Both the position numbers and the translations under genes were made by a program. From assembly GCA_023428035.1 (NCBI GenBank), contig JAEYZO010000532.1:1-10698 (forward strand): a stretch of 10,698 nucleotides of DNA, read 5' to 3'. This DNA is from Pseudomonadota bacterium (GTDB taxonomy: Bacteria > Myxococcota_A > Polyangia > Polyangiales > Ga0077539). Below, in pieces: positions 3,435 to 3,634 of this stretch (its first letter is position 1; every line of letters starts with the position of its first letter). The notes under the pieces were generated by a model. That model searched no databases. It worked only from the letters and a program-made list of their open reading frames with translations, and was not told where the DNA came from.

Positions 3435-3634
3435 GCACCCCCCTCGGGGGGTGCGTAGACCCGTCCGAGGGGATGTGCCGACCTTCCGGGAGGGATGCAC
3501 TGACCTCCCGGGGGGATCGCGGCTCCCGCTCCGGGGAGATGCGCTGACCTCCTCGGGGGGGTTCGCTCTACCCCCCTCGGGGGGTACACACCCCCGGCGG
3601 GGGGAGTGCTCGACCCCCCTCAGGGGGTACAGCC
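3435..3634. repeat. Tandem array of about 9 degenerate 18-26-bp units. Each is a C5-7 run, a 2-4 nt spacer, a G5-7 run, then about 10 variable nt. There are two sub-families: CCCCCCTCGGGGGGTAC-like, and CCGGGGGGATGCGCTGACCT-like. The array is hairpin-forming and has G4/i-motif potential.
   Basis: Units read at 3435-3459 (gcacccccctcggggggtgc, a perfect 9-bp-stem palindrome), 3460-3484, 3485-3506, 3507-3524, 3525-3550, 3551-3570, 3571-3590, 3591-3613 and 3614-3634. Each C-run can pair with its own G-run (2-4 nt loop) or with the next unit's G-run (about 10 nt loop; for example ccgggagg-gatgcactga-cctcccgg is 8 bp perfect). The array lies in the convergent intergenic region between DedA (plus) and the GFA gene (minus). 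Confidence 0.7.

Follow-up and report, generated by a model that had tools for sequence, protein, structure and literature searches.

A 22-nt hairpin minisatellite between convergent genes in a narrow lineage

Introduction

Several described systems invite comparison with the repeat array reported here. Mycobacterial MIRU repeats, with units of 46-101 bp at many loci, do not have a hairpin at their core. CRISPR arrays consist of 24-48 bp repeats and unique spacers of similar length, usually accompanied by cas genes, and the sponge RNAs CsrB and RsmZ display GGA motifs in hairpin loops and possess their own promoter and terminator.

REP sequences are GC-rich imperfect palindromes of 20-40 bp with stems of 5-13 bp, which fall into superfamilies tagged by GTAG or CGTC, are extragenic and often stand in tandem; clusters of them have been credited with roles in mRNA stabilisation, termination and supercoiling (PMC3733652). 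Between convergent genes, a palindromic GC hairpin that folds in both transcripts can serve as a bidirectional intrinsic terminator (bioRxiv 10.1101/2022.10.23.513370). In Streptomyces, Term-seq detected a U-rich motif at only about 25% of mapped transcript 3' ends, and the stems present at such ends have been discussed as protection from RNA decay (PMC8780764).

Here we describe an array of short GC-rich hairpin units in a metagenome contig of a Polyangiaceae-like myxobacterium, 10,698 nt long with 71% GC, analysed over its whole length and referred to below as the window. The contig occurs in three assemblies (ENA ERZ27268836, LEMO22-1 SAMN17062673 and Logan SRR13347294), their identity referring to the DedA-DUF6151 intergenic region only, and the named homologs of its DedA/VTT and Uma2 proteins belong mainly to Polyangiaceae, Myxococcales and Sorangium.

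Results

Anatomy of the hairpin array

Unit parsing of the window resolved a degenerate 22-nt unit in ten head-to-tail copies, u0 to u9, spanning positions 3414-3636. A preliminary description of the window had noted about nine units in a 200-bp block; the array is present and slightly larger. The features of the region are as follows, with strands given for genes.

17-2473, minus strand: MVP-like gene, whose 818-aa product matches the major-vault-protein shoulder, Vault_3 and Band7/SPFH families
2611-3333, plus strand: DedA/TVP38 (VTT-domain) membrane protein gene (Pfam VTT_dom, E=9e-17)
3334-3375: proximal spacer after the DedA stop, with one unit-like G5-linker-C5 element at 3343-3366 (repeat families D3/D5)
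3376-3407: AT-richer island, with a 6-bp inverted repeat TCCTAA...TTAGGA at 3382-3387 and 3402-3407 (I22)
3414-3437: u0, weak hairpin CCC..GGG (helix 1)
3438-3459: u1, strong hairpin C6-TC-G6, extended by its flanks to the 9-bp palindrome at 3435-3454
3460-3482: u2, degenerate
3483-3504: u3, in the window only and absent from both relatives
3505-3522: u4, short and degenerate
3523-3548: u5, CTCCC-GCTCCG-GGGAG followed by ATGCGCTGAC, holding the 19-mer GGGAGATGCGCTGACCTCC
3549-3570: u6 (helix 5), with a U.G pair in the window and a U-A pair in the relatives
3571-3590: u7, strong hairpin C6-TC-G6 (helix 6, 100% paired)
3591-3613: u8, strong hairpin C5-GGC-G6 (helix 7)
3614-3636: u9, strong hairpin C6-TCA-G5 (helix 8)
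3637-3656: distal spacer, C-rich and without repeat likeness
3657-3749, minus strand: relic of a Uma2-family endonuclease gene, its last 31 codons (tblastn with the Uma2 protein of the relative L063: 30/31 identical, E=6e-14)
3820-4422, minus strand: DUF6151/GFA-like gene (Pfam DUF6151, E=2e-30; GFA, E=7e-6)

Each unit runs from a C-run through 2-6 loop nucleotides into a G-run and closes with a linker of about 10 nt, whose consensus is ATGCGCTGAC; the consensus of the whole unit reads CYCC..GGGGGG(A)TGCGCTGAC. The units are extragenic, 18-26 nt long, spaced at 18-26 bp and about 70% alike in sequence, and their GC stems measure 3-6 bp. The array is non-coding, since neither its period (22 nt) nor the indel that distinguishes it from its orthologs (20 nt) is a multiple of 3 and none of the ORFs crossing the block has a Pfam match.

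The periodicity is pronounced. TRF reported a period of 22 nt over 3465-3567 (4.7 copies, 71% matches, score 84), and the autocorrelation of 3414-3636, with 500 shuffles as background, peaked at lags of 22 (z=7.9), 43-44 (z of about 5.4) and 66 nt (z=7.0). A higher-order repeat of two units, about 42-43 nt long (D1), joins u0 with u1, u6 with u7 and u8 with u9. The 10.7-kb window holds just four strict palindromes of the form C4+ N1-5 G4+ (at 3438, 3571, 3591 and 3614), and these are the strong C5-6/G5-6 hairpins of u1, u7, u8 and u9; the middle units u2-u6 are already degenerate. All nine matches to the pattern CCCCCCTCGGGGGGT (up to 3 mismatches) lie within the block, against 1.5 expected and a maximum of 6 in any shuffle. 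The second hairpin register that the preliminary description had seen, in which a G-run pairs across the linker with the next C-run, was recovered at 3555, 3579 and 3599, and its tally of at least ten G tracts on one strand agrees with our count of eleven G tracts of at least 3 nt within 227 nt of the plus strand, where there are also nine C tracts of that length.

Folding was computed for both strands of the array, as had been proposed, and gave a z of about -6 in comparison with dinucleotide shuffles. The perfect 9-bp stem ascribed to the block exists at 3435-3454 (GCACCCCCC/GGGGGGTGC); its loop has only 2 nt, and in practice the hairpin is therefore one of 8 bp with a 4-nt loop. At -20.1 kcal/mol it exceeds every other 22-nt hairpin of the window in stability. 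Stable hairpins of this size abound in the 71%-GC sequence, which contains 158 clusters of them in 10.7 kb, and the array stands out by its periodic repetition rather than by its capacity to form hairpins. Among the short hairpins of the window, the one that ranks second in stability lies at 2491-2516 (GTGCCGCGGTCCACCACCGCGGCGCG, -16.5 kcal/mol), in the divergent MVP-DedA intergenic region. The hairpin-unit array is thus real and well defined.

Gene neighbourhood and rearrangement of the junction

The array begins 81 nt past the DedA stop codon, a short way downstream of the AT-richer island, which has about 40% GC compared with 71% for the contig. On its other side, the called 35-aa ORF at 3666-3773 (minus strand) proved to be a remnant of a Uma2 gene. 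The block had been placed between convergent DedA and GFA genes; the junction is indeed convergent, but the Uma2 relic at 3657-3749 intervenes before the GFA/DUF6151 gene. Homology between the window and the relative L058 ends exactly at the DUF6151 stop codon, at 3820, and since only a relic of Uma2 is left, the GFA/DUF6151 gene is a recent neighbour brought in by rearrangement. Originally, DedA converged with Uma2.

Other differences were apparent in the same comparisons. The 68 nt that follow the Uma2 relic (3752-3819) have no homolog among the fetched loci, and comparison with L063 and L058 shows that most of Uma2 and an ArsM-like methyltransferase were lost in the window lineage. Further downstream, a 121-nt direct repeat, 93% identical (6037-6157 and 8666-8786), brackets restriction-modification genes at 6176-8658, one XhoI-like and one Eco57I/TaqI_C-like, over which the GC content drops to 0.60-0.65. 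L063 has the same neighbours (GH25 end at 5755, start of the next gene at 5769), a single copy of the 121-nt sequence and no restriction-modification genes; the arrangement in the window looks like an inserted restriction-modification cassette with a duplicated target. Inspection of the hairpin units by eye for the corresponding XhoI and Eco57I recognition sites found no CTCGAG or CTGAAG. The GH25-like gene at about 4465-6154 is called differently between contigs, as two genes in L001 (170 aa and 371 aa, 4554-6178) and as one gene of 541 aa in L002 (4570-6195), a split that could be a frameshift or a calling artefact. The MVP-like gene is a bacterial MVP homolog, paired divergently with DedA in the array-bearing clade and in the relatives L005-7, and related MVP homologs were found at 44 metagenome loci of widely differing GC content.

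Orthologous arrays in two related lineages

DedA orthologs of about 92% identity were present in only two other lineages of the protein collection, and both carry the array at the same position. In L063 (SRR11928969) the complete array lies between DedA and an intact Uma2 gene. In DRR438486 the Logan assembly breaks within the array; the two contigs concerned, L004 and the reverse complement of L064, overlap by 24 nt and when joined restore the order DedA-array-Uma2, again with an intact Uma2 gene. The array thus follows the 3' end of DedA in every lineage that carries it, and the synteny MVP-DedA-array is kept in all three. From u9 to the Uma2 stop codon there are about 16 nt in L063 and L064, and the array therefore fills the spacer.

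The arrays differ in unit number, with ten in the window and nine each in L063 and DRR438486, a difference accounted for by a single indel of 20 nt, or about one unit, across u3-u4, by which the window stands apart from both relatives. An array of head-to-tail units whose number varies among relatives has the makeup of a minisatellite or VNTR. The relatives have in addition a 54-nt insertion in the proximal spacer (window 3334-3375). The 19-mer GGGAGATGCGCTGACCTCC of u5 is identical in the three lineages, the u1 core of 5-6 bp is kept in all of them and its outer 2 bp are not (helix 2). The core of the AT-richer island, AATGYTTCCAASCACTTNGGA, is common to the window and its relatives, while the TCCTAA/TTAGGA inverted repeat is perfect in the window only.

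No array was found in relatives with DedA at 80% (L067) or 75% (L005-7) identity, nor in those with Uma2 at 66-67% identity (L065, L068-70). Because these more distant DedA and Uma2 relatives have no array, it is young and confined to a narrow clade. The absence of any transcription or termination signal, together with units unique to the locus and without structural conservation in orthologous intergenic regions, had been named as the refuting outcome; the units do look unique to the locus, but two other lineages have kept the array at the orthologous site.

Sequence variation and neutral decay

The reading that we favour, at about even odds, is that of a young, lineage-restricted hairpin minisatellite with, at most, the role of a 3'-end stem-loop barrier for the two neighbouring transcripts. 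The main rival, which we consider possible if somewhat doubtful and which fits the rate data equally well, is that of a functionless minisatellite. Replication slippage or unequal recombination would have multiplied one terminator-like hairpin, the copies would now be in neutral decay, and their hairpin potential would be no more than a legacy of the founding unit.

Across the three lineages 19% of the array columns vary. This equals the variation at DedA four-fold sites (21%, p=0.78), as neutral decay would predict, but is half that of the flanking non-repeat spacers (38%, p=0.002), which speaks against an entirely functionless repeat and hints at mild constraint relative to the adjoining spacer. 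Stem columns varied at 11/82 and loop or linker columns at 28/119 overall (p=0.10), and at 3/40 and 11/47, respectively, in the four strong units (p=0.08), neither difference being significant.

When the unit hairpins were imposed on the three-lineage alignment, 90% of the cells were paired, with a flat shuffle control. Each of the three lineages retains the pairing of the C-run/G-run cores in u1, u7, u8 and u9, most changes falling in the loops, and this survival of the four strong hairpins counts against neutral decay. On the other side, a covariation test of the three sequences detected no compensatory double-sided changes, and random mutants of the window array that carried the observed number of substitutions equalled the real arrays of the relatives in folding in 36/200 and 34/200 trials, a non-significant outcome, so that the fold energies of the relatives match those expected from neutral decay of the window array; the simulation in the reverse direction is confounded by the window's extra unit. 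The hairpin cores persist, and the arrays of the relatives show no advantage in folding over random mutants of the window array, which gives no evidence of selection for structure.

The window array has a fold energy of -158 kcal/mol compared with about -124 kcal/mol in the relatives, a difference that no outgroup polarises into gain or decay. It is nevertheless the window lineage, with the most stable version of the array, in which the array outlived the loss of Uma2, a point against the functionless reading. The unit-sized indel, the degenerate state of the middle units and the very narrow distribution, with absence at 75-80% DedA and 66-67% Uma2 identity, are all as would be expected of it.

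Transcription signals around the array

A GC stem-loop just past a stop codon, as u9 is at about 16 nt from the Uma2 stop, occupies the position of an intrinsic terminator. No U-tract was found 3' of any hairpin on either strand; the 10 nt past each strong hairpin contain 1-3 T residues on either strand, mostly scattered. The hairpins are therefore not canonical intrinsic terminators, and the bidirectional terminator stack put forward initially is plausible in a weak form only. Between 3000 and 4500 no terminator-like and no promoter-like sites were detected, and reading of the AT-rich island by eye for a sigma-54 site gave nothing convincing.

Searches for dispersed copies

The array could also be a local, BIME-like cluster of a genome-dispersed REP-type family mobilised by a RAYT/TnpA-REP transposase, which the evidence renders improbable. 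The likeness to REP clusters is real, with a unit of about 22 nt within the 20-40 bp of imperfect extragenic palindromes, GC stems of 5-6 bp, a position between convergent genes and tandem reiteration (PMC3733652). Moreover, the break of the DRR438486 Logan assembly inside the array is of the kind seen at repeated k-mers, and the dispersal search within the array-bearing clade covered about 12 kb of unique sequence, both of which leave some room for this explanation.

The searches themselves argue against it. The window contains no further copy of the unit, and nhmmer and blastn-short with the array against all fetched loci returned the orthologs only. Neither a homolog nor a hairpin cluster was found elsewhere in these loci (about 0.5 Mb, roughly half of it with at least 66% GC and with 44 MVP loci included), the other intergenic regions of L063 and L058 among them; isolated C4..G4 palindromes occurred at 0-8 per 10 kb in this set, and three of them within 120 nt at this locus only. 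In 185,579 species genomes the 19-mer GGGAGATGCGCTGACCTCC had 5 isolated matches, in Streptomyces, Frankia, Terriglobales, Verrucomicrobia and Poritiphilus, about the number expected by chance and none with an array. Blastn of the array against plasmids gave no match, and in an MVP-anchored metagenome scan none of the 44 loci had DedA adjoining MVP or a hairpin cluster.

The anatomy of the units points in the same direction. There is no constant GTAG/CGTC tag on either strand, the bases preceding the stems differing from unit to unit (TGCA, GTAGA, CGAC, TGAC, GCGG, TGAC, TCTA, CACA, TCGA), all units are head-to-tail, and the contig encodes no transposase, RAYT/TnpA-REP included. As for a MITE, in the window the two ends of the array show 81% complementarity over 32 nt (I3), but this follows from the palindromic nature of the units; the flanks that orient the complementary ends are not conserved in the relatives, and neither a TSD nor an empty site for the array was found. 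The dispersed REP/MITE-like family suggested in the preliminary description thus finds no support in the window or in the 0.5 Mb of fetched loci, and searches of the kind that it had recommended, here with the unit pattern and GGGAGATGCGCTGACCTCC, yielded no dispersed copies in the sequence covered.

A two-hairpin pattern search of viral contigs produced one match, IMGVR_UViG_3300037466_000669 (L066, 7206-7246). This tandem has a near-identical type of unit, ACCCCCCGAGGGGGGT plus a short linker, with a period of 21 in non-coding sequence of a high-GC contig; its two 21-nt units, ACCCCCCCGGGGGGTAGCCCC and ACCCCCCGAGGGGGGTGCC, lie in a lower-GC non-coding stretch. With only two copies and an unrelated context, it is probably an analogy.

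RNA, DNA-binding and quadruplex readings

That the array is a stand-alone multi-hairpin regulatory RNA, a sponge or scaffold in the manner of CsrB/RsmZ and possibly tied to the MVP-like and DedA genes, is very improbable. Repeated hairpin modules of about 22 nt, several of them followed by GGA(U), the MVP-DedA-array synteny in three lineages and the conserved AT-richer island just upstream would suit such an RNA. However, Rfam 15 returned only two miRNA-model noise matches (28.5 and 22.3 bits, with gathering scores of 128 and 82), the GGA motifs lie at the stem bases instead of the loops and are not conserved, and the array is absent beside MVP-DedA in L005-7, as are hairpin clusters from the 44 other MVP loci. 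With no Rfam match above noise, promoter-like site, terminator or covariation, the structured non-coding RNA proposed earlier is not borne out. We likewise attach very little weight to a self-transcribed RNA sponge or scaffold working with the MVP homolog and DedA, a counterpart of vault-associated RNA, or to the birth of a REP-like family from an amplified terminator hairpin.

A DNA-level function is just as poorly favoured, be it a protein-binding array of the iteron or centromere kind or a site for gyrase or a nucleoid protein that relieves supercoiling between convergent genes. A period of 22 bp, about two helical turns, palindromic cores, the AT-richer stretch alongside and the location between convergent transcription units are compatible with it, but no Rep, Par or partition genes lie nearby, no plasmid homolog was found, and neither the variable spacing (18-26 bp) nor the mere 70% likeness of the units is what such a site would lead one to expect.

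A G-quadruplex or i-motif region, for which the eleven G tracts and nine C tracts would speak, is extremely improbable: the G tracts stand about 22 nt apart, each beside a complementary C tract, no motif of four G3+ tracts with loops of up to 12 nt occurs in the block, the G4 prediction that had been recommended gave G4Hunter values below 1.5 across 3414-3636 owing to the alternation of C and G runs within the same strand, and Watson-Crick hairpins (-9 to -20 kcal/mol) are direct competitors. The array is not a CRISPR array, as was recognised at the outset, the units abutting without spacers and the contig having no cas genes; readings as a retron, an integron attC site or a coding repeat were rejected on the lack of a reverse transcriptase or integrase gene and a period not divisible by 3.

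Discussion

The array is a periodic, non-coding repeat that is conserved at the orthologous position in three lineages, differs between them by a unit-sized indel and is absent from more distant relatives and from the other loci sampled. It is a hairpin minisatellite with a 22-nt unit, specific to its lineage and situated where two genes converge, and nothing points to a new mechanism.

A founding unit of hairpin and 10-nt linker may have been amplified by duplications of one and two units, with units still being gained and lost. The array fills the spacer between converging stops, those of DedA and Uma2 originally and those of DedA and the Uma2 relic with DUF6151 in the window, and on account of this position we favour a two-way 3'-end barrier as its likeliest role. 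We infer that transcription may enter the array and could bear on RNA ends: read from either gene, it would yield a string of very stable RNA stem-loops, which could block 3'-to-5' exonucleases and so protect both mRNAs, and could also slow polymerases, resulting in less read-through into the opposing gene. Such a barrier would operate in a mode different from classical hairpin-plus-U-tract termination. By analogy, it would fit what has been proposed for REP clusters (PMC3733652) and the U-lacking, stem-associated ends of 70%-GC Streptomyces (PMC8780764). Against a barrier stand the relatives that evidently manage without the array, the lack of U-tracts and of compensatory changes, and the 158 stable-hairpin clusters in the same 10.7 kb.

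Terminators in high-GC myxobacteria are poorly understood. If the stack does set or protect the RNA ends of both genes, a 70%-GC myxobacterium would provide a clear natural case of 3'-end definition free of U-tracts, and the difference in unit number between lineages would offer a natural dosage series. The array may also show how a single hairpin gives rise to a BIME-like cluster without a transposase. Otherwise, it is one more intergenic tandem repeat peculiar to its lineage, whose use would not go beyond that of a strain marker.

Comparison with known systems

The array resembles a small BIME-type REP cluster but has no tag. Its short GC-rich imperfect palindromes are, like REP/BIME elements, extragenic and in tandem; unlike these, it has no GTAG/CGTC tag, its units are head-to-tail instead of mostly head-to-head dimers, and it sits at one locus of a narrow clade, with no dispersed copies or RAYT gene in the data covered. 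With MIRU/VNTR loci it has in common degenerate head-to-tail intergenic repeats whose copy number differs between close lineages (10 and 9 here), whereas its unit is 22 nt long, palindromic and known from one locus only. The string of hairpin modules of about 20-25 nt with GGA motifs recalls CsrB/RsmZ, although the array has no GGA in its loops, no promoter or terminator of its own and no Rfam match.

Bidirectional terminators are classically one hairpin flanked by A- and U-tracts, while the array consists of ten hairpins with no U-tract on either strand. Compared with the U-lacking 3' ends of Streptomyces (PMC8780764), which are experimentally mapped single stems whereas the array is read from sequence alone, it has the same setting of a 70%-GC genome and the same kind of stems without U-rich tails.
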